From: Shigella phage Moonfish
Strand: one strand, 5' to 3'
Sequence record: PQ613263
Length of the DNA: 64,000 nucleotides
A program made the translations under genes and the position numbers. The notes below the pieces were generated by a model. That model ran no database searches and was not told the DNA's origin. It saw only the letters and a program-made list of their open reading frames with translations. Positions 2,768 to 60,986 of this stretch are shown here, piece after piece (within the stretch, counting starts at the first letter, position 1; the number at the start of each line of letters is the position of its first letter).

Positions 2768-5038
2768 ATGGAACACCAAGATACTATGAAGCCGTTACCA
2801 GACCCGGCTCAATCGGATAAGCTGACAGACTGGAAGAAGGAACCAAGCATCCAACTACTAAAGGGTGACTTGGAATCAGCCAAGCCTGCTCATGATGCCA
2901 TCATGTCCCAGATTCGTGAGTGGAATGACTTGATGGAAATCAAGGGTAAGGCTAAACCCCCAAAGGTTAAGGGACGATCACAAGTCCAACCTAGACTGGT
3001 TCGCCGTCAGGCAGAGTGGCGATATGCACCATTGTCTGAACCATTCCTCTCATCCAGTAAACTCTTTAAACTAACTCCGGTTACTTTTGAAGATGAGTTA
3101 GCTGCTCGACAGAATGAGTTAGTTCTTAATTACCAATTCCGTACACAGCTTAACAAAGTGAAGCTAGTGGATGATTACGTACACAGTGTTGTAGATGATG
3201 GTACTGGTATCGCTCGTATTGGGTGGGAACGTAAGACCGTTAAGATTAAAACAGAAACCCCAGTATTCCAGCTGTATCCAATTGAGAACCAGGAACAGGC
3301 AGATGTTCTTCAACAGGCTTTACAACTTCAAGAAGAAAACCCTCGTGAATATGATGAAACAATGCCAGAGGATATTAAGGAATCTGTTAACTACTTCAAC
3401 GAAACTGGAGAAGCTACTTATGCAATCCAGACTGGGGTTACAGAGGTAGAGGTAGAGAAAGCACTGGTTAACAGACCTACCGTTGAAATGCTTAATCCTA
3501 ATAACGTAGTTATTGACCCAAGCTGTAATGGTGATTTGGATAAGGCTCTGTATGCGGTTATCTCTTTTGAGACATGCAAAGCAGACCTCATGAAGAATAA
3601 GGACCGTTATCACAATTTAGATAAGATTGACTGGGAAAGCTCCAGCCCTATGACTGACCCAGACCATGAGAGTAAAACCCCTAGCGACTTCCAGTTCAAG
3701 GATTCGCTCCGTAAGAAAGTAATTGCTTATGAGTACTGGGGATTTTACGACATCAACGATGATGGTTCACTGGAACCAATTGTTGCTACCTGGATTGGTT
3801 CTACTCTTATCCGTATGGAGAAGAACCCATTCCCGGATGGTAAGTTACCTCTGGTAGTTGTTCCATACATGCCCCGTAAACGTGAACTCTATGGTGAAGC
3901 TGATGCTGAACTGTTGGGAGATAACCAAGCTATTCTTGGTGCAACTATGCGTGGGATGATTGACCTGTTAGGCCGAAGTGCTAATGGACAACGTGGTTAT
4001 CCTAAGGGGATGTTGGATACCCTGAACCGTCGTCGATATGACGATGGTCAAGACTACGAATATAACCCAATGCAGGGTAATCCTAGTCAGGCCATTATGG
4101 AACATAAGTTCCCTGAGTTACCTCAGTCGGCAATAGTAATGACCCAGATGCAAAACCAGGAAGCGGAATCATTAACTGGGGTTAAAGCATTCTCTGGTGG
4201 TGTAACTGGTTCAGCTTATGGAGACGTAGCTGCCGGTATACGTGGTGCACTGGATGCAGCATCCAAACGTGAGATGGCAATCCTTCGTCGATTAGCTAAG
4301 GGTATGGCAGACATTGGTACTAAGATATGTGCAATGAATGCTGTGTTCTTATCTGAGAAGGAAGTAGTACGTATTACCAATGAACAGTATGTAGAGATTA
4401 ACCGAGAAGACCTTAAAGGTAACTTCGACATTGAGGTTGACATTAACACTGCTGAAATTGATAACCAGAAATCCCAGGACTTGGGCTTCATGGTTCAAAC
4501 GTTAGGTAACACAGTTGACCAGTCTATTACGTTATCTCTTGTAGCTAAGATTGCGGAACTTAAACGTATGCCTGACCTTGCACATGAGTTACGTACTTGG
4601 CAACCACAGCCTGACCCCTTGGACGAACAGCTTAAGCAATTGGCAATTCAGAAAGCACAGCTTGAGAATGAAGAGCTGCAAAGTAAGATTGCACTCAATA
4701 TGGCTAAAGCTAAAGAGGCTGCTTCTAGTGGTGACCTTAAAGACCTGGATTATCTGGAACAGGAATCTGGTACTAAACATGCTCGTGATATGGAAAAACA
4801 AAAAGCACAATCTCAAGGAAACCAGAACCTTCAGATAACTAAGGCATTGACAACACCTACCAAAGAAGGTGAAACTACCCCCAACATATCTGCTGCTGTT
4901 GGATATAACACTTTGACTAACGGGAACTCTCCACAAGAACGTGACCTAGCTGCTCAGCAAGACCCGGCTTATTCACTTGGTTCCCAATACTATGACCCTA
5001 GCCAAGACCCAGCATCGGCTCTTGGCATGAACTTGTAA
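2768..5038 (+). CDS. Portal protein (N4 gp59-like)
   Basis: 756-aa ORF upstream of head genes; size and position match the N4-type portal; low-complexity acidic C-terminus. Confidence 0.5.
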
Positions 5039-5415: not shown

Positions 5416-6636
5416 ATGACTACGGAAGCTGCAACCACAGCTTCCGACATTCTCGCAATGTCGGATGATGAGATTCTGAATATGGAAGCCCCAGCAGTTA
5501 TTGCTGAGGAAGATACTTCCACTCAGAACAACCCAGAAACCAACGGCGTACAGACTCCTGCTGAAGAAGTTGACACCCCTGCTGTTGAAGACCAACCAAC
5601 CGAAGAAACCTCCCCTGAAACTGAGCCAAACGAAGAAGATGCAGCAAATGCTTTAACTTCTGATAAAGTTGATGATAAAGTTGTCGACACAGAAGTTGAT
5701 AGTAACGGTAAGCCGATTACTAAAGCTGAACCTTCTACTGCTGAACCAGGCCAGGAACAGAAAGAAGAAGGCAAACAGTCTGAAGGTCTGCCTGCTGACT
5801 TCAACTATAAGGAAGGTTATGAGAAGTTGATGGCTCCTTTTAAAGCTAACGGCAAAATGATTACTCCCCGTTCACCGGAGGAGGCCATTAGCCTGATGCA
5901 GATGGGTGCTAACTATACTCGCAAGATGCAAGAACTTCAGCCGTACCGTAAGGTAATGCTGATGTTACAGAACAACGGTTTAATGGATGAGGATAAACTT
6001 TCTTACCTGATTGACCTGGATAAGAAGAATCCTGAAGCTATTAAAAAGTTGCTGAAAGACTCTGGTACAGATCCTCTGGAATTTAATCCAGATGAAGAAA
6101 TTAACTACCAGGGTGGCAATCACCGTGTTACCGACACCGAAGCAGATTTTGCAACCGAAATTGACGACTTAAAGTCTACTCAAGAAGGACAAGCTACATT
6201 AGGTGTTATCGGCTCGACGTGGGATGCTGCCAGTAAAGATGCTCTTTATCAGAATCGTGGTTTACTTCAGACTATTCACGAACAACGTGAGAATGGTATT
6301 TATGACACCATTGCTAACGAAGTGAATCGTCTTCAGATGTTAGGCCAGATTCCGGTTGGTACTCCGTTCATTCAGGCGTATAACCACGTTGGTAATCTCC
6401 TTGCACAACAGGGAGCATTTAACCAAGTGGCTAAGCCAGAACCAGTACAAGCAGTTAAGCCAGTGGTTCAGCCGGTAGTGCGTGTAGCACAACCCAAGCA
6501 GACCCTGACTAACAATGAGCAAGCTAAAGCAGCTTCCCCTAGTCGGGCTGCTACACGTAAAGCAACACCTATTGTAAACCCACTCGCTATGAGTGATGAA
6601 GATTTCGCTAAACTCCCAGTACCGGGTAGTCTTTAA
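5416..6636 (+). CDS. Putative scaffolding/head-assembly protein
   Basis: Highly acidic, low-complexity N-terminal third (E/D/T/P-rich); immediately upstream of the major capsid gene. Confidence 0.3.
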   Translation: MTTEAATTASDILAMSDDEILNMEAPAVIAEEDTSTQNNPETNGVQTPAEEVDTPAVEDQPTEETSPETEPNEEDAANALTSDKVDDKVVDTEVDSNGKPITKAEPSTAEPGQEQKEEGKQSEGLPADFNYKEGYEKLMAPFKANGKMITPRSPEEAISLMQMGANYTRKMQELQPYRKVMLMLQNNGLMDEDKLSYLIDLDKKNPEAIKKLLKDSGTDPLEFNPDEEINYQGGNHRVTDTEADFATEIDDLKSTQEGQATLGVIGSTWDAASKDALYQNRGLLQTIHEQRENGIYDTIANEVNRLQMLGQIPVGTPFIQAYNHVGNLLAQQGAFNQVAKPEPVQAVKPVVQPVVRVAQPKQTLTNNEQAKAASPSRAATRKATPIVNPLAMSDEDFAKLPVPGSL

Positions 6637-14631: not shown

Positions 14632-17600
14632 TTGAACAGGAAACATGCTATGTCAACATTTGACCGTCTGGCAGGTTTCGCAGACAGCATCACTAATGCC
14701 AAGCAAGTCGATGTCTCTACTGCAACCTCTCAGAAGCAAGCTGCACAAGGGCAAAGCCCTTTCCAATTAACCCCAGAGAATGCTTACAATCTCCAGACTG
14801 GACGTGTAGGTAATCTTGGAACTGGTGCATTCGAACCAGGTTCACTTCAGGCTGACTTCACTCAAGCCTCCCCATTAGAAATCATTAATAAGTACGGTAA
14901 TGAGAAAGGTTTACAGATTCTTAATAGCCGAGCTAATGCTGCTGATGTTGTACGTCAGGACTTATCTAAACAGCGTACTAACGCAGAAGCATTTGGCGAT
15001 ACTCTTTCTGGTGTTGGTCTTGGTGTTGCTAATACCCTTGGGGGCATTGCTGCTCTTGGCACAGGTCTGGTCAATGATAATGCCGGGGCATCCATTGCTT
15101 CCGGGATGGATTGGCTGAATGAAGGTGTACGCAATCTCCAGTCTGATGCACTGAATGCTACCCGTAAAGTTGTTCAGAATCAGAACCAGATTTCTGCTCA
15201 AAAGAACCAGAAACTTTACGAGCAAGATATTAAGAATGGGGAGAACGATTTGGTTGCCTCCCTGTCTCGCATTGGTCGTGACGCTTTTGATTCTGTTGCT
15301 AATACACTTGATAATGGTATGGCTGCTACCGATGGACTGAGCGAAGGTGTTGGTTCCCTCTTTACTGCTGGTCCACTTATCCGTGGTGTGTCTGCATTAG
15401 GTAAAGTAATGGTTGGTGGTGATAAAGCTGTTAGGGGTATTACCTTAGCTGCTGAGTTGGGTTCACGTCCTGCACAGGTTGCACTGTCTGCTGGTCGCGT
15501 TGCTGCACCTGCTATTGCAATCGGTGGCATGGAAGCAGGTGGTGCATACCAACAGACTGCATCTGAAATCATGAAGATGTCCCACCAAGAATTGGCAAGT
15601 AAGTCTCCTGTTTACCAACAACATATTGCTGATGGTTTACCTCCTGATGAAGCACGTCGTCAGACTGCATCTGAAACAGGTATCACTGCTGCTGGCTTAA
15701 CTGCTCCAGTTGCTGCTGCTACTGGTCCACTGGTATCTCGCTTTGAACTTAACCCACTTAGAGTAGGTTCACTGGCTGGTGCTGGTTCTAATATGTTACG
15801 TGAGACTGTAGAAGAAGGTATTCAATCCGGCTTTGGTCAGTTCGCACAGAATACTGCAATCAAGGAAAATGTTGATGCATCCCGTGACACCCTCAAAGGG
15901 GTCGGTGAGCAAGCAGGGCTTGGTGCACTCTACGGCTTCGGTAGTGCTGGAGTTGCTCAAGCTCCTGGTGCAACTGTTAAAGCTGCTGGTGCTGCCACTG
16001 CTCCTGTTGTACGTACTACCCTGGCTGGTGCTTCTCTGGTTGGTAATGCATTAGCTAAAGCTGCTTCCCCTATTACTAACATTCTGGTTCAACGTGGTGA
16101 AGAAGTTGCTAAGCGTAATGAACAAGCATCCCCTGTAGCTGATGCTACGGTTAATGCTGCTGCACAAGAAGCTACTGCTCAGGCAGAACAAGCACAAGCG
16201 ACTGTACAGGAAGCAGTAGATGCAATGGATATCTCTCCTGAGGAGAAGGCTGCTGCTACTCAGTATGCTGCTGACTTAACTCAGGCAATGAACTTTGACC
16301 CTGTAGAATTGGAACAAGCTAACCCGGTAATTCGTGAAGCTGTTTCTGGTTCCACTAACCGTGTTGAAGCTATTCAGAAGATGGCTGACTTGGTTAATAC
16401 AGCAGAAGACCCTAACGTTCAAATGGAAGCTGCTATCCAGATGTATGACAACATCATGTCTATGGATAGCTTCATTAACCGTGACCCAGGTGCACTGGCT
16501 AATCTGGAACAGGGTTCACCTGCTGCTACAATCGTAGACCAGTTCTCTGGTCTGATGGCTAACGTACAGAATACACCGAAGGTACTTCGTGCATTCCGTG
16601 CTATCCATTCCATGATTCAGGAACAGGCTGAAGCAGGTAAGCTGAAAGCTACTGAAGAAGCTAACCAAGCTCAAGCAAACAACATTGCCATGGCTGCTGA
16701 CGTGTCTCCAGAAGTATTGGATGCAGATTCAGTGAACATGGTTCTGAAACATGCAAGTGAAGGTAAGATTACACTGGGGAATCGTCAACGTGCTGCCCTG
16801 CAATCTGCTGCTGCCTTGTTACAGGGTGCACGAGAGTTTGACGCTAAAGCAGAAGAACTAGGCTTACGTCCTCAAGACATTGTTAGTAAACAAATTAAAA
16901 CCGACGAGTCTCGTTCTAACGAAGGACAGTACTCTGCGTTGCAACATGCGAAACGCATTCGTTCTGCGTATAACTCTGGTAACTTCGATTTGGCTTACGC
17001 TTATCTGAGCGACTTTATGAAGTTCGCCCAGCACATGCAGAATAAGGTCGGAGCGTTGAATGAGCATCTGATTTCTGGGAATGCGGATAAGAATAAGTCT
17101 GTTCATTATCAGGCTCTCTCGCCTTCCCGTGAATGGGTACGTAGTCGTACTGGCCTCGGTGTCAATCCTTACGATACCAAGTCTGTTAAGTTTGCCCAGC
17201 AAGTAGGACTGGAGGCCAAAACCGTAGCTGATATTGCTAACGCACTTGCTACGGCTTACCCGGAGCTTAATGTTTCTCATGTGAAAGTTACCTCGTTGGA
17301 TTCACGTCTGAACAAGCCAGCTGCCCAGGTAGTTAAAGAGTTCCGTCAAGGTGGTCTTGATGCCACTCAGTCTCAACAGACCAATGAACCAGTGAATCAG
17401 GTTGATGAATCTCCTGCACCAGTGCAAGAGGACACTACTACTGTACAGCCTAAAGCTAAACCTGTGGTAGAAAATAAGACTGCTCCTACTAAGGAGACTA
17501 GCCCAAAAACAGAAGAAGTCTCTACTACCAAGTCTGAAACAGTAGAAGCTACCCTCACTAATGAGGATACCATCCAGGAAGTAGCTGAAACCAAAACAGA

Positions 17601-20600
17601 AATGGAAACAGTGTTCCCCGTCTATAACAATGAAAAGACACCGAACCAGTTCCTGAAAGCATTTACCCTACCAGAAGAACCTAAGTCTCGTACCATTGGT
17701 TCTGAGTCTCCGTTGACTGATGTTAAGCAAGCACTGTCTTCTGTTGCTCGCTTTGAAGCATTCACTCAAAAAGAAAATAACGCTCTCACAGGTGATGTGA
17801 TTAAGCGTTATCAGGACTTAATGGACTTTGGTGAAACTCTGAAGACTACTTTGTCTGAACGACTGGCTAAGTTCCTTGCTAACAAAAATGTCGGTAAACG
17901 TTTTGCAGAAGGTACGGAAGCTAACCGTTGGGTAGGTGGCAAACTACTGAATATCGTTGAACAAGATGGTGACACCTTTAAGTTCAATGACCAGTTGTTA
18001 GAGACTGCTGTGCTTGCTGGTCTGCAATGGCGACTAACTGCTACACAGAATGCTGCTGTTAAAGACATGAAAGACGTAGCTGCTATTACGGGTGTAGAAG
18101 CATCTCTGTTACCAGAAGGTATTCTGGCTGAGTTCGAGAATGCTCAGACTCTGGTTGAAGCTACTAACTCACTGGCTCAGAAGATCGAATCCTACTGGGG
18201 TTTGAACCGTAACCCTAATGCACCACTGGGTTATACCAAGGGTATCCCAATGGCAATGGCTACAGAGATTCTGTCTTCCCTCATTGAGATGGGTGAAGTT
18301 AAAGAGTCTATGCTGGATGTGTCTGAGATTGACCCAGATTCCAATAAGACTGTCGGCCTGTATACCATTGAGAAGCTGGATGACAATGATGCCATTAACA
18401 AATTCCCTACTGCTATTGAGGAAGCTGTCCTCTTAGAACCAGAAGAGAAAATGTATTTCGGTGACGACATTCCTTCCGTGGCTCAAACTCAATTACGTAA
18501 TCCTGCTGTTAAGAATACCCCGGAACAGAAAGCTGCTCTGAAAGTAGAACAGGCTACTGAGTTCCGTGTACACATGCCGATGGTTAACTTCTATGAAGCT
18601 ATGGGCCGTGACAACATACTGGAATTGATGGGTGCTGGTTCTCTTAATCCTGAACTGTTGAACGTGAACACTGCTAAGTCACTGGAGGGTAAAAACCTGT
18701 CCGTGTCCATGGCATATGATTCCTTGTTTGGTGTAATCAATCAGATTAAGGAACAGGAGAATGGACTAGATACACCTATCCACTATGGCTACAACATGAC
18801 CCGTGTAGGTCGTATGCAGATGCTTGGTAAGAACAACCCACAGTCCAGCAAACTGGTACGTGAAGCAATCCTGCCAACCTTCTCTACTATTGACTTGAGT
18901 AATGAAAACAGCCAAACGTTCTCTGACTTCCAGTTAGGTCTGGCTCAGGCATTGGGTATCAAGGTTCATAATATGTCCCGTGAAGCTATGTCTGAAAAGC
19001 TGACCAAAGCTTTGGAAGGTAATCTGAAACCTGCTGTTGATATGATGGTTGAGTTTGATAAGTCTGGTCACTTACCTGCTGATGCAGTTGATATTCTGAA
19101 GACATCTCTGGGTGGCGATAAATCATTCGTAGCTCTCATGGCTCTTATGGAATATGCCCGTTACCTGAACAGTGATGACCGTGCCAACTTTAATACCCCT
19201 CTGTACGTTGAAGCCGATGGTGTAACCAACGGTCCGATTAACGCAATGGTATTAATGACTGGTGGTAAGTTCACTCCAGACTGGATTAAGAATACTGCTA
19301 AAGGTGGTTTGTTCTTCGGTAAAGCTGGTAAGACTATGAACGAACATCGTTCACAGGATGACAGTGTTGACTTGTATGAAGCATCCACCAATGGTCTGCA
19401 ACAAGCATTGGGTGAATTGCGTAGTACTTACCGTAACAACGTTCCTGTTATGAGCCAGATGAACCATCTCCAGAAGTTAATGGACCTGTTCATCAAAGAC
19501 TTTAACTTGAATGAAGACGGTACTTTGGACCTGAAACGTGGTATCGCTAAAAACCCACTGACTATTACCATCTATGGTTCTGGTGCACGTGGTATTGCTG
19601 GCAAGATGGTTAGTGCAATTACTGACACCATCTATGAACGCTTCAGTGACGTTCTGCAAGCACGTGCTGCTGACCCTAGCATTTCCCCAGCTATGGCGAT
19701 GTTTGGTAAGGAGGCTGCGTCTGAGGCTGATGCTCAGGCTATGCTGGATACTTTCCTTACTTCTATGGAAGCACTGACTGGTAATGTTCCAGTTATGCGT
19801 AAAGGCGAACTGTCTATTCAACAGGCAGAAGGTGCTCTGACTGGTAAGTTAGACCCTCAGAAGTTTACTGTATCTGGTAATGCCTTGAAGAACCTACAAG
19901 AGAACATGCTTCACTTGTTCGTTGAACCAATGCGTACAGGTATCCGTAATACTGTTGGTGAAGGTCTGATGCACTCTACTGAGAACTTGCAGAAGGCTAC
20001 TCAGATTCAGTCTCTGGTATTGCAGGATATGTTCCAACAAGCAGTACAGGCTAAACTGGCAGAAAAAGAAAATGACCCAACGTGGAAGAAGGGTGATTTC
20101 TTAACACAGAAAGAACTGAATGAAATTCAGGAATCATTATCTCCACTGGCTCCAATGATTGAGACTGGCGCACAGACTTTCTACATTGCTGGCAGTGAGA
20201 ATACTGATGTTGCTAACCAAGTACTGGCTACCAACTTAGATGACCGTATGCGTGTGCCAATGAGCATCTATGCCCCGTCACAAGCAGGTGTTGCTGGTAT
20301 TCCATTTATGACCATCGGTACTGGTGATGGCATGATGATGCAGACCCTTTCTACTATGAAAGGTGCTCCGAAGAATACCCTGAAAATCTTTGATGGCATG
20401 AACATTGGTATCAATGACATCACTGATGCAAGCCGTAAAGCTAATGAGGCTGTATACACTTCCTGGCAGGGTAACCCTATCAAGAATGTTTATGACTCCT
20501 TCGCTAAGTTCATGAAGAATGTAGACTTCAGTAAACTGTCTGATGAAACCAAACAGGCTATCGCTAAGTCTGCTCTGGAATACGACCAGCGTGAAGGTGC

Positions 20601-52994: not shown

Positions 52995-53222
52995 TTAACT
53001 TAATGCATAATCCGTTTCAAGAATGTCCTGCCAGAGGCTGTCATCCAGCTTACCCGCAGAGAACTCTTGTCCCAGTACCTGAGATAGGATGAAGCCCAGC
53101 AAGTCACTCTTAGCAATGTCAGATAGAATCTGATTGTACTGACGACGTAGGTCATTACCATAGTTAGGATGACAACGAAAACCATTAGTTAAACGAGTCG
53201 TTAGCTCGCCCTTACCTTCCAT
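52995..53222 (-). CDS. RNA polymerase II large subunit, C-terminal segment (downstream exon or fragment)
   Basis: Ends WQDILETDYALS, resembling the T7 RNAP C-terminus LRDILESDFAFA; overlaps the HNH ORF stop. Confidence 0.5.
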   Translation of the reverse strand: MEGKGELTTRLTNGFRCHPNYGNDLRRQYNQILSDIAKSDLLGFILSQVLGQEFSAGKLDDSLWQDILETDYALS

Positions 53223-53856
53223 GATTAACATGAAAGCCATATGTAGCATCTGCTTGTTTACGAGCAAGCATTGCCTCCTCAAGTGTGTCGTACGTACCCA
53301 GACCGATCTGTTTGCGATTGACTGTGATGTGTGCCTGAAATCTACCAGAAGGCAGTATTCTCACACCGTTCACTTTGCTTGAAGTATTACTAGATAAACT
53401 CATATTCATCTGGTTCTGTCTGCTGGTTACATTTCTCAAATTAGACCAACGATTGTCGTTTCTAGTATGATTGATGTGGTCCACCTGGTTAGGTGTTTCC
53501 CCAGTTTCCATTATCCAGATTATTCGATGTAGTAAGTACTCTTTGCGGCCCAGGCTAACGGATAGATACCCTTCTTTGTGAGGATACCCCACAATTGTTC
53601 CGGCTAACCCACTGGCAGAGTCATAACGATGAGTCACTAGCCCACTATCCCTGTCATACCTTAAAACCTTCTGCAAAGATTCTTGGGTAATATTACCCAA
53701 GTTTATTATTAGGTTTTTACAGGTAGAGCATAGATGACCTATTGGACTCTTTCTAGCATCATAGAAGTTACAAACAAACTCATTAGAGCATTGCTTGCAA
53801 CTACAGATAGCTGTGTACTTACCAGTTTTACGTAATATTTGAGAGTTATCTAACAT
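53212..53856 (-). CDS. HNH-AP2 homing endonuclease inserted in the RNA polymerase II large-subunit gene
   Basis: HNH motif HRIIWIMETGETPNQVDHINHTRNDNRWSNL plus AP2-like NGVRILPSGRFQAHITVNRKQIGLGTYDTLEEA; own RBS. Confidence 0.6.
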   Translation of the reverse strand: MLDNSQILRKTGKYTAICSCKQCSNEFVCNFYDARKSPIGHLCSTCKNLIINLGNITQESLQKVLRYDRDSGLVTHRYDSASGLAGTIVGYPHKEGYLSVSLGRKEYLLHRIIWIMETGETPNQVDHINHTRNDNRWSNLRNVTSRQNQMNMSLSSNTSSKVNGVRILPSGRFQAHITVNRKQIGLGTYDTLEEAMLARKQADATYGFHVNHGR

Positions 53857-54148
53857 ATGGATTCCTTAGTAATTTTGCATACAATTTCAGATTGTATCCT
53901 AACCAAGGAAGTAAGTCTCCAATTTTCACTGGAGTATCGGACTATATCATCACCCACTAATCAGTGGGGCAAGGCGCTTGGGTGGTCACTTGACTCACCT
54001 ACTCTACTCACATACGAAATGCTTTCGATAGTCTCTGAACCTTCCCTCATAGAGGGCTTGGCTGCTGATTGGCATATCCATAGGACTTAGCTTTCCAGCA
54101 ATTCACCTTGTTTTCGACACGGATTACTCCGTGAAGGATCATTTATGT

Positions 54149-55180
54149 TTAATCATGTACAGTCAATACAGGGAATGGCTTCTTAGGTAAAGTGTCCAGC
54201 ATGTCTGCTACTACCTGACGGTCAACCATAGCAATAGTGCCTGGGTCGAGATAGTCGATAATAGACATAGATAAGAATCCAGACTTCTCGTAGTGTTCCC
54301 ACAAGGTCTGTACCATTTCCATGTTACCTTCAATCTCCCCATACTCTGCTGGGCCTGTGTCGCAGAGTTCACGAACAGCAGCAACCAGGTTAGCATCGAA
54401 GTTACAACGACGCAGCATCTCGCGTACCACCATCCCATCAATAGAGTGGGTGATGTTAGCAGAGAGCATACGAGTCTTCTCTTCAGTACCCTGAACCATG
54501 CGGGTAATGTCGAATGGTTTACCTAAGAAGTTAACAGTCTGTACTTCTGGAACCATGACCTTAATGACGGCATGGAAGTTGTCAGACAATACCCATACGT
54601 AACGGTTAGCATCCGGGTTACCACATTGCAGTAAGAACTTGTTCAATGCCCAAGGCCCACTAGCAACAGTTTCCATTACATTCTCAAAAGTCTTGAGACG
54701 GATACCCTCACCGAATACTTCTTTAGGCTTAGCTTCTGAACCGTAGAATGCAGTCATAACTGCCTGCTTAGTGTCACTACGCTTAATACGAGATGCTTCA
54801 CCAAGGATGTCCAACATCTTGTGATAGATAACTGTATAAGCATCACGACGTAATGGCTTACCGTTTTCACCCATGTAGTTAACTACGTTACACAGTTCAG
54901 CAGCAGAACGGTCACCAGTCAGGCAAGCCAGTAACTGCAAGCCTGATGATGTAGCATCCAGAGCTACGGCATAGCCAATAGGCTTACCGGCTTTCATATC
55001 TTTCCATGCGTTTACACCTGCATAGAACAATGCGGATTCTTCAGCTTCATCTACCAGATTAAGCAGGTTAGCTTCGTTTTCATCGAACCAGCTAATACGT
55101 TCATCCCATGTTTTCTTATCCAGACCCATGTTATTCGCAATATCAATCTTTAAATATTCTTTCGCTGTGAAAAGCTGCAT
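54149..55180 (-). CDS. T7-like single-subunit RNA polymerase, N4 RNAP II large subunit (gp16-like), N-terminal segment ending at motif C
   Basis: Motif A ALDATSSGLQ (T7 DGSCSGIQ), motif B RSDTKQAVMTAFYGSE (T7 RSVTKRSVMTLAYGSK); ORF stops right after VHD (T7 motif C IHDSFG). Confidence 0.7.
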   Translation of the reverse strand: MQLFTAKEYLKIDIANNMGLDKKTWDERISWFDENEANLLNLVDEAEESALFYAGVNAWKDMKAGKPIGYAVALDATSSGLQLLACLTGDRSAAELCNVVNYMGENGKPLRRDAYTVIYHKMLDILGEASRIKRSDTKQAVMTAFYGSEAKPKEVFGEGIRLKTFENVMETVASGPWALNKFLLQCGNPDANRYVWVLSDNFHAVIKVMVPEVQTVNFLGKPFDITRMVQGTEEKTRMLSANITHSIDGMVVREMLRRCNFDANLVAAVRELCDTGPAEYGEIEGNMEMVQTLWEHYEKSGFLSMSIIDYLDPGTIAMVDRQVVADMLDTLPKKPFPVLTVHD

Positions 55181-55181
55181 C

Positions 55182-55763
55182 TTAAGCTCCTAGTTTCCAC
55201 GTATAGCCATATGCTTGTGCATATGTACCAATAATTGATTGTTTAATGTTTGATGGTATTCCATTTACACTGCGTGCTGCTGCACTCAGTGAATGGAATG
55301 TCTGGATGTAAATACCATCCAGTGTGTATTGCTCTACAGGGATAGCAGATTTGGTATTAATACCGTTGATTGCATCAGAGTAATACCTTCTTACATTGGC
55401 GTTTACCGTAACAACACGAATGTTATCCAGTGAGTAACCTTTATAGTCATCCAGCCTGTCAAGGCTTGGCTTCAGGTTGGTTGGGTAATCCTCTATTACC
55501 CATTTATCATACAGAGTGTGAAACTCTTTCTTTGATAACACCCATTGTTCTAGTTCCTCTTTAGTAAAAGTAACAGGATTAAACCCTTTCTTCTTGGTTC
55601 TGCTTACGCAACCGGAGTACATTTGATTAATGACTCCTTGTTTGGAATGGATAAAACGTTTCACACAGTCTTTACAGTCTGCTCTTACACCCTGTTTACC
55701 TGTGGACTGTTTATTGAACATGTCCAGAGGCAAGTTCTGCTTACATACTGAACATGTCTTCAT
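55182..55763 (-). CDS. Putative homing-endonuclease-like DNA-binding protein (Cys-rich N-terminus, NUMOD-like HTH C-terminus)
   Basis: CSVCKQ...CKDC at N-terminus; C-terminal FHSLSAAARSVNGIPSNIKQSIIG...GYTWK; stop/start within 1-3 nt of both neighbours. Confidence 0.35.
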   Translation of the reverse strand: MKTCSVCKQNLPLDMFNKQSTGKQGVRADCKDCVKRFIHSKQGVINQMYSGCVSRTKKKGFNPVTFTKEELEQWVLSKKEFHTLYDKWVIEDYPTNLKPSLDRLDDYKGYSLDNIRVVTVNANVRRYYSDAINGINTKSAIPVEQYTLDGIYIQTFHSLSAAARSVNGIPSNIKQSIIGTYAQAYGYTWKLGA

Positions 55764-55764
55764 A

Positions 55765-56583
55765 TTAATCCTCGTTTACTAACTCTTTATCTGCGAACTC
55801 TATAACTGCCTTATTGTAAGAGGTTCCCGCATAGTTAATATGGTATCCACATGCATATGTTCTTCCCCTCTTATCAAATTTATGTGCTAGTGAGAAGTTA
55901 TTACCTTCTTTGGTCACTAACTCCATTACTTCCTTAGCTGTACGGCTGTACTTCTCAAAGGCTTTAACTCGTTTCTCATAGTCCTGACGGGTTTCACCCT
56001 CTTTGGGTTTATCCATGTTAGGACGAGAGTCTTTTACATAGTTGGCAACGTCCCAGTTAATACAGAGTCGTTGGTTGTTCATACGGTTAATGTGGTCAAG
56101 GCAGACGTCCATCTCATGATGGTTCTTCTTGAGGATGATTGAGCCTTTAGATTCATAGTAGCCAGTGTCCCGATTAGTCAGGACTGGCTTAGGCTTACTG
56201 ACGATAGGTAATGGATACTGGAATGCCTCCAGTTCCATCTGAACATCTTCACTAATCTCATAAATAACACCGAACTTGTCGATGGTAGGGTCATAGTTGA
56301 AGCAGTCATTCTCTGCCATCTTATACAGACAGTCAGCGATATACTGAGCGTCATCTGAGTGACTCATGAGAGAGCCAATCATAGTCTGAATGTCAGCACG
56401 TTTATGTAGGGCAATCTGCACCATTGCATCAATGAGCAGCTTATAATCAATTTCTAAATAGGCGGCGAATGCCTTAAAGTCAATTTCTTTGGAGTCCTCA
56501 AATTCCTTCCTCATGCGAGGGAGTAATTGGTTTTTGTTGAAAAGGATTTCAAGTTGCTTCTGATGTTCAATAGATGAGTACAT
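55765..56583 (-). CDS. RNA polymerase II small subunit (N4 gp15-like)
   Basis: 272-aa ORF immediately upstream of the large subunit; sizes match the N4 two-subunit RNAP II. Confidence 0.45.
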   Translation of the reverse strand: MYSSIEHQKQLEILFNKNQLLPRMRKEFEDSKEIDFKAFAAYLEIDYKLLIDAMVQIALHKRADIQTMIGSLMSHSDDAQYIADCLYKMAENDCFNYDPTIDKFGVIYEISEDVQMELEAFQYPLPIVSKPKPVLTNRDTGYYESKGSIILKKNHHEMDVCLDHINRMNNQRLCINWDVANYVKDSRPNMDKPKEGETRQDYEKRVKAFEKYSRTAKEVMELVTKEGNNFSLAHKFDKRGRTYACGYHINYAGTSYNKAVIEFADKELVNED

Positions 56584-56616
56584 CGCATATTCTCCTAAAT
56601 GTTATTAATAACCAAA

Positions 56617-56631
56617 AGCTGCGGAGCAGCT
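56617..56631 (-). promoter_or_regulatory. Hairpin promoter candidate (N4 vRNAP-type), core agctGCGGAGCagct
   Basis: 6-bp stem, 3-nt GGA loop; 35 nt upstream of the RNAP II small-subunit start; identical core at three other sites. Confidence 0.55.
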
Positions 56632-56636
56632 ATTAC

Positions 56637-57017
56637 CTAAAAGGTTCCCCAGTAGATATAGTCATCTCCCAGGATAGGTTTCCAGGCTTCGTCAAACATG
56701 ACGTTGCCTGTAGCATTTGCAAACATAGGGGCAATGTCCTTGTCTTCATAACCAGCCAGTCCACAACCAATGCGTGTTACTTTAAAGTCCCACTCTGGGT
56801 GTGCTGCTGCATACAGGATGAATGCTGCTACAAATTTCTCAATATCCTCTAAGGACATAGTCTTGATTGACTGGTTTTTGGTTGGGATTGCATAGCTGCA
56901 ACCATAATGGCCTACGCCCATACCCCAACGAGCACCGTGCTTCTTATATGCAACTTTCGCTGCACCAGCACCGTGACGGCCTGCTAAATTACTACCGAAT
57001 ACTAATATCTCTTTCAT
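56637..57017 (-). CDS. Hypothetical protein (Gly-rich nucleotide-binding-like motifs)
   Basis: 126 aa; VFGSNLAGRHGAGAAK and IGCGLAG. Confidence 0.3.
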   Translation of the reverse strand: MKEILVFGSNLAGRHGAGAAKVAYKKHGARWGMGVGHYGCSYAIPTKNQSIKTMSLEDIEKFVAAFILYAAAHPEWDFKVTRIGCGLAGYEDKDIAPMFANATGNVMFDEAWKPILGDDYIYWGTF

Positions 57018-57021
57018 GCTA

Positions 57022-57342
57022 TTAATCCTTTGGTTTAAGAACTTGGAATGCGAACACAGGACGTTTACTACGCCACTGGTTCATAGCTAGTTCACTAGCA
57101 GGAGAGCCATCATGTAAGTCATATATGAATGTAATCATATACTCTGGTTCCTCTGGGAAGTTCTCTGTAGAGAACGGTAGACCTGCTTCTTTTAATACAG
57201 GAACCAGTGGTGATTCAGCTGCACAATAAATAATGAACTTTTCGCTGAATGCTTTACTGGTCTGAGATACGTAATCAATATTACGCATCATCTTATCGAC
57301 ATCAGTAAATGTATTATCATGTACTACTACGATGTTATTCAC
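57022..57342 (-). CDS. Hypothetical protein
   Basis: 106-aa ORF. Confidence 0.3.
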   Translation of the reverse strand: MNNIVVVHDNTFTDVDKMMRNIDYVSQTSKAFSEKFIIYCAAESPLVPVLKEAGLPFSTENFPEEPEYMITFIYDLHDGSPASELAMNQWRSKRPVFAFQVLKPKD

Positions 57343-57596
57343 TCTACTTTCTCCAGGGTTAGATATACTGTATTCATTTGAGGCACATAATCACAAAAAC
57401 CAATTTCCTCTTGTCTGCCACTAGACTTCCAAATACAGTTTTCAGTTAGTTTAGGCTTTCTACTAAATCCAATTAGTGAGGCATTCTTACTCTTCTGAGG
57501 ACGAGGTAATAAGGCTACATATTTAACCCATAATGGGACTTCAATAGTTTGTCCCATATAGTTAAATGATTTAGTTACAGGGAATGTAATAATCAC
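57339..57596 (-). CDS. Hypothetical protein
   Basis: 85-aa ORF. Confidence 0.3.
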   Translation of the reverse strand: MIITFPVTKSFNYMGQTIEVPLWVKYVALLPRPQKSKNASLIGFSRKPKLTENCIWKSSGRQEEIGFCDYVPQMNTVYLTLEKVE

Positions 57597-57956
57597 TTAG
57601 TACCTCACCACTATTACTTTCTTATTATTTAACCGAGTCATGATATCAATCATGTGTTTGGTTCCTTTTGACTTACCATCCCAGAATGCTACAAGAGTAT
57701 CTGCGAAATTAGCCATTTCAGTATTACGTACATAACCTGCACGCTTACCTAATCTGTCCCAGTCAGCAGGAAATTCATGTATTATCATCCCTGCCTCTTT
57801 CCAGAGATTATATGCTGTAATGTCTGCTCCTCTAGCCATACCACATACAAGTTCAGGTGAATCAGTTATTTCACCAGATTCTACTAGCTTCTGTAATTCA
57901 GCAATCATGCGATTAGTGTCAATGAAGTCACGTCCACCAGCTACAATTAGTCTCAT
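57597..57956 (-). CDS. SLOG-family protein (DUF2493/YspA-like)
   Basis: Motifs IVAGGRDF, CGMARGADI, FPADWDRLGKRAGYVRN, VAFWDGKSKGT. Confidence 0.5.
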   Translation of the reverse strand: MRLIVAGGRDFIDTNRMIAELQKLVESGEITDSPELVCGMARGADITAYNLWKEAGMIIHEFPADWDRLGKRAGYVRNTEMANFADTLVAFWDGKSKGTKHMIDIMTRLNNKKVIVVRY

Positions 57957-58174
57957 TTCTGATACCCCTGAATATAGTTAATACGGCGAATACGTTGAGT
58001 AGATGCCTTAACAGCCATCTGATGATTTTCTTCTTTGTGCTGATTTTCCAGCACCTTAGCCCATTCTTCCTGGTTCCGTTGTTTCTGTAATATACGACTA
58101 CAACGTTTATGATTGGCAACTCCACGTCCTTTCTTACAGACTGGGCATATACCATAATCGTTTGAGTACATCAT
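57953..58174 (-). CDS. Small zinc-ribbon protein
   Basis: 73 aa with CPVCKK...HKRC. Confidence 0.3.
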   Translation of the reverse strand: MMYSNDYGICPVCKKGRGVANHKRCSRILQKQRNQEEWAKVLENQHKEENHQMAVKASTQRIRRINYIQGYQK

Positions 58175-58479
58175 TGGCTTAAAGCCTCCATTAATATTTT
58201 ACGAATAACGTTAACATCAGATTCAGTACCAATTAAACCAACAGGTTTCTTTGTACTATCTGTGACAAAGGATGCAATCCTTTCCATCTCTGCTGTAATT
58301 AATTTGTCACCACTAATAAGACGATTACGAAGGTAAGCCTCATAAGCTACCTCTATATCTTCTACTGTGGTTCTTTCATTACGAGTGAATGGATTACTTA
58401 ATGGGAAGGGTAAATGTACCCGTATATTCCTGTCAGCTACCTTAGCTAAGTGAGGGAGTATACATACTATTTCATTCAA
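58171..58479 (-). CDS. Hypothetical protein
   Basis: 102-aa ORF. Confidence 0.3.
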   Translation of the reverse strand: MNEIVCILPHLAKVADRNIRVHLPFPLSNPFTRNERTTVEDIEVAYEAYLRNRLISGDKLITAEMERIASFVTDSTKKPVGLIGTESDVNVIRKILMEALSQ

Positions 58480-58520
58480 GATTCTTTCTCCTATTTAAAT
58501 ACATATCTAAACTATTCAAG

Positions 58521-58557
58521 AATAAAAAATAGGAGCCTCCTATTGGAGGACTCCTTA
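58521..58557 (-). terminator. Rho-independent terminator
   Basis: Hairpin aggagcctcc-tatt-ggaggactcct with A-run on +. Confidence 0.45.
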
Positions 58558-58848
58558 CTATTTGATACATGGGTGATTGAAGGTAACAATCTTACGTACT
58601 GGTTCAGATGTCTGTTGCTTAGCAGCCAGACGCCCTTTCATCTTTTGTACGTCAGCTTTGGTTCCCATGATTAATGACTTACGCATGTTTAGTACTCCAC
58701 ATAAAGTTATAAGGTTTACCGTTACGTACAATTCTTACAGCCATTTGATAACCATTGATTTGTACAACACCATAGTGTCTCTTTTGGTCACCAGTCTGGT
58801 TCCGTCTGAAGATACACTCTTCAATAGCATCATTGATATTAGTGAACA

Positions 58849-59037
58849 TCATTGGTTCCTCTTTGCAAACTCTTCTGCTTGTTGCTTGTAGTACTGAGTC
58901 ATTGCTTTCTTGTGTTTAACACTAGCAATGAGACACTCGATAGTAACGAATGGCAGCTTAGCAATAAGCAGCCACTTTTGACGTAACTTCCAGCCTAGAA
59001 AGTAGAAGATTACACAGAAAGCGATGAAGTCTAACAT
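58849..59037 (-). CDS. Small membrane protein
   Basis: 62 aa with TM segment. Confidence 0.3.
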   Translation of the reverse strand: MLDFIAFCVIFYFLGWKLRQKWLLIAKLPFVTIECLIASVKHKKAMTQYYKQQAEEFAKRNQ

Positions 59038-59139
59038 GGTTATTTCCTCTTCTAAGATAGCTCTAATGGGATAGGTTTTAATTTTAGACCCCCTTCGTCG
59101 AAAGAGGCGTAAAAGTTAAACTTAGCTTATCGCATAGTT

Positions 59140-59168
59140 AAAATAAAAGGACTCCCCGAAGGGAGTCC
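59140..59168 (-). terminator. Rho-independent terminator
   Basis: Hairpin ggactccc-cgaa-gggagtcc with preceding A-run on +. Confidence 0.55.
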
Positions 59169-59177
59169 AGTTGTTGA

Positions 59178-59564
59178 TTAGAAAGTCAGTTTACGAGCAT
59201 ATTTATTCTCATCGGCAGGAATAGATTCTTCCTGAGCCTTCACGCGTCTTAACTGAACTTGCAGGTTAATGATACCTTCTTCACCTGGTTCCAGGTTCTG
59301 AGCATATTCGATTAACTGTTCCAGCAAATCGTTCTGTGCACAACGCATAGCACGGAAGTCAGCATTGCTGCTATTAGTAGGCAGTGCTTCCTGAGTATCC
59401 AGTGGAATACCAGTAGGCAGAGAGATGAATTTCTCATCATCAGAGCCTTCATTAGCAACATAACCAATGTTCAGCCAGAACTGAGCCTTAGGCTTAGCAG
59501 CTTTAGTTTCAGCAGTGGTAGCAGCAACGTTAGATTGACCGAAAGTGAATTTTTGAATAGACAT
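59178..59564 (-). CDS. Early protein, unknown function (start at internal ATG with GGAGAG RBS)
   Basis: Track ORF 59178..59663; the ATG at about 59564 has an RBS; first gene downstream of a hairpin promoter. Confidence 0.35.
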
Positions 59565-59674
59565 TTTGTACTCTCCAGATAAATGATTGTTTGATTGATG
59601 GGTTTGTCTGTCGGTGACTAAACCCAAGAAAAGACTTAGGATTTCAATGATTAGTGGATGCATTTACGTCCTCA

Positions 59675-59689
59675 AGCTGCGGAGCAGCT
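59675..59689 (-). promoter_or_regulatory. Hairpin promoter candidate (N4 vRNAP-type), core agctGCGGAGCagct
   Basis: Identical to the 56617 hairpin; intergenic. Confidence 0.55.
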
Positions 59690-59693
59690 ACTT

Positions 59694-59897
59694 TCAGACC
59701 GACTGCAATACTGACTTATCGTGAGGTAAGTCCTCAAGGGAGTTGAATACTTCTTCTGTGCTATCCAATCGGATACCAATGGATGGATCTTCAACCATTA
59801 CACAGTTGTAATCAGTTGATTCATTTACTTTTTGTAACTCAAATCCACCATGTACAAAGAACTTTTCACCATCTTTAACGTCAACAAATGTAGCCAT
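59694..59897 (-). CDS. Hypothetical early protein
   Basis: 67-aa ORF 34 nt downstream of a hairpin promoter. Confidence 0.3.
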   Translation of the reverse strand: MATFVDVKDGEKFFVHGGFELQKVNESTDYNCVMVEDPSIGIRLDSTEEVFNSLEDLPHDKSVLQSV

Positions 59898-59930
59898 TTT
59901 ATTACTCCAGTAGTTATAGGGATACCCAAT

Positions 59931-59945
59931 AGAAGCGGAGCTTCT
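59931..59945 (-). promoter_or_regulatory. Hairpin promoter candidate (N4 vRNAP-type), core agaaGCGGAGCttct
   Basis: 6-bp stem, GGA loop; intergenic. Confidence 0.55.
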
Positions 59946-59951
59946 TGGTTT

Positions 59952-60305
59952 TTAAGACAAGCGTTTAAGTAATTCTGCCTTAGCAGACTCATACTCTTGT
60001 TTAGCTTTAGTGAGGTCAATGGTTGACTCACCCCAGTGAAGGATATCTATTGTATAGGTTGTAAGAACATCGACTGCATCTTCGAAGCGAGCCAGTAGTT
60101 CTTCCTTATCAGGACCATCGAATTGTTCCCATTGCCATACATAACCGGATAACTTAACTGTTTCCCCTTTCTCAAAGTAAGGTTCTTCTCCAAATAGGAA
60201 AGTAGAATCTTCAGTTAATCGGATATGTTCTCCTTCCAATTCTCCTACGATAATTGTTCCAATAGGGATGTCAGAATTACCCCTGATACAACGGAATTTA
60301 GTCAT
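59952..60305 (-). CDS. Hypothetical early protein
   Basis: 117-aa ORF. Confidence 0.3.
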   Translation of the reverse strand: MTKFRCIRGNSDIPIGTIIVGELEGEHIRLTEDSTFLFGEEPYFEKGETVKLSGYVWQWEQFDGPDKEELLARFEDAVDVLTTYTIDILHWGESTIDLTKAKQEYESAKAELLKRLS

Positions 60306-60361
60306 GATTTTCTATCCTAGAAGTAGATAGTTATCTACTTAGTCTATCTATCTAATGTTTA

Positions 60362-60388
60362 TAAAAGGAGACTCCGAAGAGCCTCCAT
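60362..60388 (-). terminator. Weak terminator-like hairpin
   Basis: Imperfect hairpin ggagactc-cgaa-gagcctcc with A-run on +. Confidence 0.3.
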
Positions 60389-60398
60389 ATTTGATTTA

Positions 60399-60719
60399 CT
60401 ATTTAGTCAGGATGTCGATTACTTTTGAATATTCTGCGTTATAGATACGAGCGTTCTCTGAATCTTTGCAGAATTCTTCGATACTTTTCTTACGCATAGT
60501 CTCGTTCATAGCTGTTTCTTCAGCTAATTTGTTTACGAATGTATGCATTTCTAATTTAGTACGGATGGCTTGTTTCTCTGCCATAGTAGATACATATGAA
60601 TTAAGCATACCTACTGCTTTAGTAGCTGTGCCGAATGTATCTGCAACAGTAGTAGCAGCTGAGTTAACAGTACCCAGTAAAGTTCCTGCGGTCATACGTA
60701 CAGTAGCGGTAGTAGTCAT
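60399..60719 (-). CDS. Hypothetical early protein (coiled-coil)
   Basis: 106-aa ORF 43 nt downstream of a hairpin promoter. Confidence 0.3.
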   Translation of the reverse strand: MTTTATVRMTAGTLLGTVNSAATTVADTFGTATKAVGMLNSYVSTMAEKQAIRTKLEMHTFVNKLAEETAMNETMRKKSIEEFCKDSENARIYNAEYSKVIDILTK

Positions 60720-60761
60720 GATGATAGCTCCAATAGTTGATGATAGGACGACATGTCCATA

Positions 60762-60776
60762 ACATGCGGAGCATGT
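60762..60776 (-). promoter_or_regulatory. Hairpin promoter candidate (N4 vRNAP-type), core acatGCGGAGCatgt
   Basis: 6-bp stem, GGA loop; in a 267-nt intergenic region. Confidence 0.5.
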
Positions 60777-60986
60777 GTAACGTGTAAGGTGGGGTAGGGT
60801 AGTGGCTACAGGGTCAACATACCGGGGGGGATGGTTGAGTGTAAGGGTGTAGCCCCAGCCACACCACTAAAGCTGAACATAGCTATGATGAAATCCCTAA
60901 GAAAAAATATGAGAAGTACTTTCCCTATGCGACTACTGCTAGACATAGCTATCAACATTTTGACATGCAAAAATATCATAGCTATC

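Follow-up and report, generated by a model that had tools for sequence, protein, structure and literature searches.

Four short hairpins in the early region of Shigella phage Moonfish are most probably promoters for the virion-encapsidated RNA polymerase (vRNAP), predicted from their sequence to work as in coliphage N4; we put the probability of this reading at roughly 0.93. They lie in a 64-kb stretch of DNA (the window, i.e., the whole stretch analysed) from a G7C-like N4 relative (Gamaleyavirus); in the 25-kb segment compared, it shares only ~93–94% identity with its closest GenBank relatives. The observation holds but is an ordinary one: three of the sites have direct N4 counterparts (P1, P2 and P3), and the remaining one is a variant known from the annotation of a related phage. 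The sites and the early genes around them are as follows.

56617–56631, + strand: site 1, hairpin AGCTGC-GGA-GCAGCT, flanked by a stop (56637) and the start of gp15 (56583)
59675–59689, + strand: site 2, hairpin AGCTGC-GGA-GCAGCT, flanked by the stop of orf67 (59694) and the start of the long gp2 ORF (59663)
59931–59945, + strand: site 3, hairpin AGAAGC-GGA-GCTTCT, flanked by the stop of orf117 (59952) and the start of orf67 (59897)
60762–60776, + strand: site 4, hairpin ACATGC-GGA-GCATGT, counterpart of N4 P1, upstream of the gp1 start at 60719
60399–60719, − strand: gp1 homologue, 106 aa, 65% identical to N4 gp1 (phrog_5020)
59952–60305, − strand: orf117, small early ORF (phrog_24403)
59694–59897, − strand: orf67, small early ORF of 67 aa (phrog_2183), with sites 3 and 2 on either side
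59178–59663, − strand: gp2 homologue, RNAPII cofactor, 161 aa as the long ORF, 64% identical to N4 gp2 (residues 1–161)
55765–56583, − strand: gp15 homologue, RNAPII small subunit (phrog_2166, N4-like RNA polymerase, E=8e-115)

A Pfam search returned no match for gp1, orf117, orf67 or gp2.

Hairpin sequence, folding and conservation

The window reads agctGCGGAGCagct at site 1 and again at site 2, agaaGCGGAGCttct at site 3 and acatGCGGAGCatgt at site 4. A sequence-only reading of the same DNA had placed four hairpins with a 6-bp stem, a GGA loop and a GCGGAGC core at these coordinates; all of this is exact, and the stems are perfect. In the both-strand motif scan which that reading had proposed, GCGGAGC occurs four times in 64 kb, each time on the + strand, within one of these hairpins and in intergenic DNA, as borne out by the ORF boundaries, instead of being equally abundant inside coding regions in random orientation. 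As a bare heptamer, its count is unremarkable (4 observed vs 2.5 expected in the window); in a perfect stem of 5 bp or more, however, the four copies compare with a mean of 0.04 and a maximum of 1 per window in 200 dinucleotide-preserving shuffles. The minimum-energy single-stranded DNA fold is the given hairpin at all four sites (−4.7 to −5.7 kcal/mol), with z-scores that are unremarkable for two of them (−1.4 and −1.65), as is expected with such short stems. None of the four sites matched an RNA family in Rfam.

The distance of 34–107 nt to the next gene start, as originally proposed, generally holds, except that for site 2 the figure presumes an internal ATG at 59566; the longest gp2 ORF starts only 12 nt from this hairpin. 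Counted from the inferred left end of the genome, the sites extend from ~93 nt (site 4) to 4240 nt, the linear records of G7C, PhAPEC7 and KKP3715 terminating at about window position 60856–60862.

Hairpins before gp1 and gp2 are present in 17/17 relatives examined and, before gp15, in all 16 whose fetched locus extends to that gene; this set leaves out Klebsiella phage K57alpha1.2, which matched a differently arranged record. Across 266 kb comprising the window and the related loci, 61 of the 62 GCGGAGC heptamers are part of a hairpin whose stem is 5 bp or longer. The stems covary. In a set of 31 distinct sites (18 genomes), pairing holds in 95.7% of cells, and both sides are changed in 35. 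The covariation score is 0.495 vs 0.125 in shuffles; 0/500 shuffles reached the observed score, which collapses once the stem partners are slid. Selection of these sites for a stem of at least 4 bp forced the two inner variable pairs and left pairs 11/23 and 10/24 free; given that 61/62 heptamers were already in hairpins, it threw out almost nothing. The 7-nt core is invariant save for −11, where N4 P1 has A in place of G.

These data bear on two other explanations. The window is rich in inverted repeats, perfect ones of 6 bp or more occurring at 2–3 times the shuffled level (44 vs 17.7 for 3-nt loops), and the hairpins could, in principle, be chance members of this population. Against this stand the four copies of one 7-nt core on one strand of a 4.2-kb early region and their syntenic conservation in 17 other genomes, so that a chance origin is refuted by the shuffles, by the relatives' hairpins and by the near-complete confinement of the heptamer to stems; its likelihood is negligible. 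Alternatively, inverted repeats in intergenic regions upstream of genes might be palindromic double-stranded operators for a dimeric phage or host regulator. However, what is conserved is the asymmetric centre GCGGAGC, the reverse complement of which (GCTCCGC) differs, while the symmetric arms vary freely with compensatory substitutions and offer no two conserved symmetric half-sites. Such a centre combined with compensating arms is the mark of a structure rather than of a pair of identical half-sites; in addition, every copy holds one orientation relative to its gene. We regard the operator explanation as highly improbable.

Geometry of the probable promoters, polymerase and predicted transcripts

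The three early promoters of N4, P1, P2 and P3, have been described in detail (Haynes & Rothman-Denes 1985; Glucksmann et al. 1992; Gleghorn et al. 2008; reviewed in PMC4496689). Their determinants are −11A/G, −10G, −8G, +1C, −9C and −12A, and transcription starts 8 nt from −8 (PMC4496689). All four Moonfish sites read 5'-G(-8)C G G A G C(-14)-3' and, hence, carry −8G, −9C, −10G, −11G and −12A together with the G:C loop-closing pair. The purine-loop form is on the + strand, i.e., the template for the − strand early genes, as had been pointed out from the sequence, and the same is true of N4. At the level of sequence, template CC is found at +1/+2 in 4/4 sites (56612–13, 59670–71, 59926–27, 60757–58), matching the two GTPs seen in the N4 initiation complex (PMC4496689). 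Likeness to P1–P3 extends from the template-strand location, the 3-nt purine loop with GCG(G/A)AGC centred at −11, the template C at +1 and a stem within the 5–7 bp range to the positions before gp1, gp2 and gp15. Differences concern the loop of site 4 (GGA vs GAA in N4 P1), the stem length (6 bp vs 5 or 7 bp in N4), the T at −1 of site 2 and the number of promoters—four vs three—which is accounted for by an additional hairpin, located together with a 67-aa ORF in the interval from the P2 counterpart to gp2.

Two other purine-loop, GC-clamped hairpins of the window, GCAAAGC (14751, 6-bp stem) and GCAGGGC (15913, 5-bp stem), were rejected as promoters; they are without −10G and a conserved CC at +1 and are located within the vRNAP gene, on its coding strand.

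Site 4, with its loop centre (−11) at 60769, shares the flank TGTCCATAA with N4 P1, the hairpin before gp1; the predicted start is the template C at 60758, from which a − strand RNA would carry GG at its 5' end and a 39-nt leader before gp1, the first early gene and the one predicted to be driven by this site. The 15-nt hairpin of site 3 is exactly that of N4 P2, and by position it is the counterpart of the relatives' gp2 promoter; its flanks CCAATAGA...TCTTGGTTTTTAAGACAAGCGTT are common to SP5M and ST4, and a start predicted at 59927 would yield a 30-nt leader with a GGAG Shine-Dalgarno motif ahead of orf67. Site 1 corresponds to N4 P3, the hairpin before gp15, with identical sequence from −18 to +2; the predicted start at 56613 would leave a 30-nt leader with AGGAGAA ahead of gp15. 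The sequence-only reading had stressed that this hairpin lies directly upstream of the RNAPII genes; the position is right, yet it is the canonical P3 position and, hence, not new (in N4, the P3 hairpin is centred about nt 4554 and gp15 starts at 4603).

Site 2 appears to be an additional promoter directly ahead of gp2, with a start predicted at 59671 and a leader that would measure 8 nt if the long gp2 ORF is used and 105 nt if translation begins at the internal ATG. The template base at −1 is A in sites 1, 3 and 4; in site 2, it is T and not a purine. Considering that the initiating nucleotide of N4 stacks on a −1 purine (PMC4496689), site 2 may be weak; however, T at −1 also occurs in the gp2 promoters of several relatives and a purine may, thus, not be a strict requirement.

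The enzyme expected, from homology, to read the four hairpins is encoded in the window.

14632–25002, + strand: virion RNA polymerase gene, 3456 aa (PDB N4 vRNAP match, E=0)

The Moonfish vRNAP is 67% identical to that of N4 overall and 72% within the mini-vRNAP domain; it keeps K114, R119, W129, K849, K850, D901 and R904 as well as both catalytic aspartates, D559 and D951. K267 of the β-intercalating hairpin is N in Moonfish, which counts against the promoter reading. In sum, the proposal that the four hairpins are vRNAP promoters is supported by strand, stem/loop geometry, the bases at −8 to −12 and the template CC, and it also fits the position before gp1, gp2 and gp15 and the presence of a cognate vRNAP with intact recognition residues.

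By analogy with the N4 mechanism (PMC4496689), each inverted repeat would extrude as a small cruciform, in which the GGA loop of the template-strand (+) arm would be stabilised by a sheared G:A pair and resist melting by the host SSB. The vRNAP would bind this arm, with W129 and R119 placed at −11G, K114 at −10G, and D901 and R904 contacting −9C/−10G and −8G; RNA synthesis would then begin with two GTPs opposite the template C at +1/+2, 11 nt from the loop centre. For a promoter of the N4 type, extrusion would further depend on supercoiling, with host SSB stabilising the template-strand hairpin, and initiation by vRNAP would be resistant to rifampicin. The resulting − strand transcripts would lead from 60758 to gp1, from 59927 to orf67 and then gp2, from 59671 to gp2, and from 56613 to gp15, the HNH ORF and gp16, the latter three together encoding RNAPII, so as to jointly provide the middle-transcription machinery. 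The gene for the RNAPII large subunit is split by a group I intron with an HNH endonuclease. T7-type single-subunit RNA polymerases are comparable in their homologous fold, a recognised region from −17 to +1 or beyond, initiation with GTP, and a specificity loop and β-intercalating hairpin that read the promoter; T7 promoters, however, are double-stranded linear sequence elements, unlike the extruded single-stranded hairpins predicted here.

Under a third explanation, the hairpins would act as intrinsic terminators or attenuators for transcripts coming from upstream, either at the RNA level or through the non-template strand, and the resemblance to promoters would be secondary or reflect dual use. 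A terminator scan did flag site 1 (AGCTGCTCCGCAGCT followed by TTTTGGTTATT on the − strand), and the A-run at −1 to −4 of N4 P2, N4 P3 and site 1 necessarily becomes a U-run 3' of the hairpin in read-through RNA. Sites 2, 3 and 4, by contrast, are unflagged in the transcribed (− strand) sense and have no T-run (tails TGAGGAC, ATTGGGT and TATGGAC); all the stems are just 6 bp with 3–4 G:C pairs, and far stronger candidates with 8-bp stems are found 3' of gp1 and gp2.

60367–60386, − strand: intrinsic-terminator-like hairpin with TTCG loop and T-run, 3' of gp1
59149–59168, − strand: intrinsic-terminator-like hairpin with TTCG loop and T-run, 3' of gp2

Furthermore, termination leaves the invariant asymmetric purine loop and the conserved CC at +1/+2 unexplained, and we consider it very unlikely to be what the four hairpins serve. 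Between the gp1 terminator and site 3 sits orf117, which has no hairpin of its own.

Number of predicted promoters and the gp1–gp2 interval

The sequence-only reading had also pointed out that four copies exceed the three early promoters of N4 by one. The count is right; as a novelty it does not stand, four putative early promoters, P1–P4, having been published for Klebsiella phage KP8 (PMC6950046 Table 1; GenBank MG922974 "early promoter" features). The layout is the same: P1 precedes gp1, P2 precedes a small homologue of orf67, P3 (GCTGC-type stem) lies immediately ahead of the gp2 analogue, and P4 is found upstream of the gene for the RNAPII small subunit. The KP8 homologue of orf67 (ORF4, 1004–1219; 51% identical) likewise lies between two annotated early promoters, and both KP8 P3 and a site in Jgk1 occupy the position of site 2, 3' of the orf67 homologue, with a GGCTGC stem. 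KP8 differs in belonging to the genus Kaypoctavirus, in stem sequences that deviate by compensatory changes, and in an extra ORF that sets P4 apart from gp15, unlike site 1; its early promoters are, as those of Moonfish, predictions. In the scan of this analysis, four hairpin promoters were also found in G7C and KKP3715, and five in Jgk1; SP5M probably has four, too. A literature search on promoters of G7C or Gamaleyavirus returned only the KP8 paper. Short hairpins with 3-nt loops have further been predicted, by N4 analogy, in the early regions of LUZ7, LIT1 and PEV2 (PMC3715699) and of the Pectobacterium phages CB1, CB3 and CB4 (PMC6027278); these phages are distant, and their hairpins differ in sequence, with reported stems of 4–5 nt, whereas the Moonfish sites are near-identical to those of N4 itself.

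Knowledge of N4-type transcription is unchanged by the four hairpins. The gain lies in correctly annotated early transcription units for a G7C-like coliphage, including four precise predicted start sites, and there is a modest added value of a comparative kind: within the subfamily, the number of vRNAP promoters ranges from three to five, the variation is confined to the gp1–gp2 interval, and the hairpin immediately upstream of gp2 is nearly always kept. Promoter number may be of interest to a model in a recent preprint (PMC12633501), which proposes one promoter per vRNAP copy, with roughly four copies in the virion.

Tentatively, the gp1–gp2 interval might be a cassette slot with vRNAP hairpin promoters as its boundaries, in which the short, conserved sequences of promoter and leader would act as homology boxes for swapping small early ORFs among Enquatrovirinae; a newcomer ORF would inherit the upstream promoter, and gp2 would keep or regain a dedicated one. 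Between the window and SP5M, homology runs through both hairpins, but the ORFs enclosed by these are unrelated; the orf67 family is found between two hairpins in KP8 and Jgk1, and ST4 has an SP5M-type ORF along with a decayed second hairpin, GACGAGGAGCATC. If this possibility were true, promoter number (3 to 5) would follow cassette content.

Hairpins of the early region and the defined N4 promoter

The four 15-nt sequences reported by the sequence-only reading are present in the window as exact matches, and all four are, as it stated, intergenic and located 5' of - strand ORFs. The hairpins and the features around them are listed below.

Features of the early region (window coordinates)
56617-56631, +: site 1, GGA-loop hairpin
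59675-59689, +: site 2, GGA-loop hairpin
59931-59945, +: site 3, GGA-loop hairpin
60762-60776, +: site 4, GGA-loop hairpin
55765-56583: homologue of gp15, the small subunit of RNAPII, downstream of a hairpin
59178-59663: homologue of N4 gp2, downstream of a hairpin
60399-60719: homologue of N4 gp1, downstream of a hairpin
59694-59897, -: orf67, a small ORF between sites 3 and 2
59952-60305, -: orf117
59149-59168, -: terminator-like hairpin after gp2 (8-bp stem, TTCG (UUCG-type) tetraloop, then TTTTAT)
60367-60386, -: terminator-like hairpin after gp1 (8-bp stem, TTCG (UUCG-type) tetraloop, then TTTTAT)

The motif scan proposed with that reading, run on the 64 kb, returned four copies of GCGGAGC, on the + strand every time, each forming the centre of a perfect inverted repeat with a 6-bp stem and a 3-nt loop; this hairpin is also the minimum-energy structure of all four sites as single-stranded DNA. 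By itself, the heptamer count is ordinary (4 seen vs 2.5 expected). GCGGAGC enclosed by a stem of 5 bp or more occurs four times, whereas 200 dinucleotide-preserving shuffles averaged 0.04 such cases and never had more than 1, and across 266 kb comprising the window and related loci, 61 of 62 heptamers reside in such hairpins, the lone exception lying in the N4 late region; chance inverted repeats are, hence, excluded as an explanation. Generally, the window is two to three times as rich as shuffled sequence in perfect inverted repeats whose stem has 6 bp or more—44, 53 and 51 for 3-, 4- and 6-nt loops vs about 18 expected (SD 4-5), using triplet-block shuffles for all three loop sizes and dinucleotide shuffles for 3-nt loops only—and no common motif was seen among them beyond the four promoters.

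The N4 promoter comprises a GC-rich heptamer centred at -11 with inverted repeats on either side, in which -11A/G, -10G, -8G and +1C are recognition bases and -9C is contacted; hairpin extrusion needs a sheared -10G:-12A pair and a G:C loop-closing pair, and transcription starts 8 nt downstream of -8, with two GTPs aligning with +1 and +2 (PMC4496689). GCGGAGC corresponds to -8 to -14 of the template strand, read 5' to 3', so that every required base is present in all four sites. A template C is found 11 nt from each loop centre, preceded by a second C, placing the predicted transcription starts at 56613, 59671, 59927 and 60758; given the template CC at +1/+2, the predicted RNAs start with GG. 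Their predicted leaders (sites 1-4) measure 30, 8, 30 and 39 nt, with a GGAG-type ribosome-binding site in three of the four. Sites 1 and 2 share one hairpin and differ at -1, which is A in site 1; in site 2, a T takes the place of the purine there, and it may, for this reason, be a weaker promoter.

The cognate enzyme is encoded in the window as well. Its virion RNA polymerase (vRNAP; 3456 aa, 14632-25002) gives an E=0 match to the solved N4 vRNAP structures; identity to N4 gp50 is 67% over the whole protein and 72% in the mini-vRNAP domain, which corresponds to about residues 972-2077 of the ORF. It keeps K114, R119, W129, K849, K850, D901 and R904 along with the catalytic residues D559 and D951; the sole difference among the residues compared is K267, which is N in the beta-intercalating hairpin. 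As far as sequence analysis shows, the interpretation of the hairpins as N4 vRNAP promoters is correct.

Conservation and covariation among relatives

The early regions of 17 relatives were scanned (13 Gamaleyavirus genomes, N4, Klebsiella phage KP8, Jgk1 and SP5M). Hairpins precede gp1 and gp2 in 17 of 17, and gp15 in all 16 whose locus extends that far. Throughout 31 aligned distinct sites, the 7-nt core is invariant except for position -11, where N4 P1, the early promoter before gp1, has A. The three variable stem pairs nearest to the core are paired in 31 of 31 sites, with 3, 13 and 17 double (compensatory) changes; the sample required a stem of at least 4 bp, by which the two inner variable pairs are forced, and this filter removed essentially nothing. 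Of the 31 sites, 23 form the outermost pair. The stem covariation score amounts to 0.495 vs 0.125 for shuffled data, a value reached by none of 500 shuffles, and it collapses upon sliding the stem partners. Because the symmetric arms covary and the conserved portion is asymmetric, a role as palindromic operators is contradicted. Only site 1 gives a weak hint of a terminator function, with TTTTGG after the hairpin on the - strand; such a role agrees neither with sites 2-4 nor with the asymmetry conserved in the loop.

In the first 9 kb of N4 (NC_008720), three such hairpins are found on the template strand.

Hairpins of N4
GTTGC-GAA-GCAAC, centre about nt 96: before gp1
AAGAAGC-GGA-GCTTCTT, about 565: before gp2; 7-bp stem, four A's at -1 to -4
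AAGCTGC-GGA-GCAGCTT, about 4554: before gp15

The stem and the A's of the second agree with the description of P2 (PMC4496689). Site 1 is identical to the gp15 hairpin from -18 to +2, site 3 shares its 15-nt hairpin with that before gp2, and site 4 has the initiation flank TGTCCATAA in common with that before gp1. The sequence-only reading had singled out a hairpin directly upstream of the RNAPII genes; its position is right and, given the identity of site 1 to the N4 gp15 hairpin, it is nothing unusual, being the canonical position of P3.

Genome ends and neighbouring genes

The hairpin region is 84-93% identical to the Gamaleyavirus G7C-like N4 relatives Bas96, ST4, PhAPEC7, G7C and KKP 3715, and phi G17, PhAPEC5 and PhAPEC7 match the structural half at 93-94% identity. 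The linear GenBank records of G7C, PhAPEC7 and KKP 3715 terminate at about window 60856-60862; the window, therefore, spans joined genome termini, which makes the hairpin region the left-end early region in reverse reading, and its assembly is read as circularised or repeat-collapsed. Site 4 is probably part of the terminal repeat and may, thus, be present at both ends of the virion DNA. The records of CU10EC and Jgk1 contain the P1-type hairpin in two copies, 215 and 500 bp apart.

Between the gp1 terminator and site 3, orf117 has no hairpin promoter of its own and would, consequently, rely on read-through. The gene of the RNAPII large subunit, gp16, is interrupted (52998-55180, - strand), with residues 1-343 encoded at 55180-54152 and about 344 to 405 at 53180-52998. 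The gap of about 0.9 kb contains a group I intron (Rfam RF00028, 91 bits, E=7e-23, 53917-54160, -) and an ORF for an HNH-type endonuclease (214 aa, 53212-53856). Among GenBank phages, the same insertion is present only in vB_EcoP-ZQ2 (94% identical), annotated with two RNA polymerase CDSs and an HNH endonuclease and with no intron; gp16 is uninterrupted in G7C and N4. The intron core is similar to introns that myoviruses of Salmonella and Escherichia carry in DNA polymerase genes and Erwinia phage MIF8 in an RNAP2-like gene. The RNAPII subunit genes are separated by an ORF of 193 aa (55182-55763, -) that is endonuclease VII/HNH-like and has a NUMOD1 domain, an arrangement as for G7C gp15.1 and absent from other relatives.

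The gp1-gp2 interval and the probable additional promoter

The commonest number of hairpins per genome is three; four are found in the window, G7C and KKP 3715, five in Jgk1, and SP5M probably has four, three of them detected in its first 2.1 kb, the stretch scanned. The count of four, contrasted earlier with the three of N4, is correct and not new: four putative promoters, P1-P4, have been published for KP8 (PMC6950046 Table 1), and its GenBank record annotates four as "early promoter". Their layout is the same as in the window—KP8 P2 precedes ORF4, the best database homologue of orf67 (51% identity); P3, with a GCTGC-type stem, lies directly before the gp2 analogue; and P4 is followed by one small extra ORF and then by the gp15 homologue.

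Aligned with SP5M, the window is homologous across both hairpins and the leader, with an unrelated intervening ORF. In ST4, the ORF is of the SP5M type and the second hairpin is mutated, GACGAGGAGCATC; located where the window has site 2 (5619-5635 of the ST4 comparison locus), this hairpin is decayed (AAGACGAGGAGCATCTT), with A instead of C at -9 and one stem mismatch, and seems to be the remnant of a second promoter preceding gp2. Judged by its flanking sequence, site 3 corresponds to the gp2 promoter of the relatives, and site 2 is the additional promoter, maintaining a hairpin immediately before gp2.

At site 2, the long gp2 ORF begins 8 nt past the predicted +1 and lacks a Shine-Dalgarno sequence (window 59564-59671); a good GGAG site accompanies the internal ATG at 59566. 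The 33-aa N-terminal extension is kept in N4 and KP8, and the PHROG profile of the gp2 family starts at the internal Met. Either gp2 is translated from an mRNA with almost no leader, or its start is misannotated throughout the family.

On sequence grounds, three of the sites are orthologues of N4 P1, P2 and P3, and the remaining one is an additional promoter of a kind for which the KP8 annotation provides a precedent; little in this is new.
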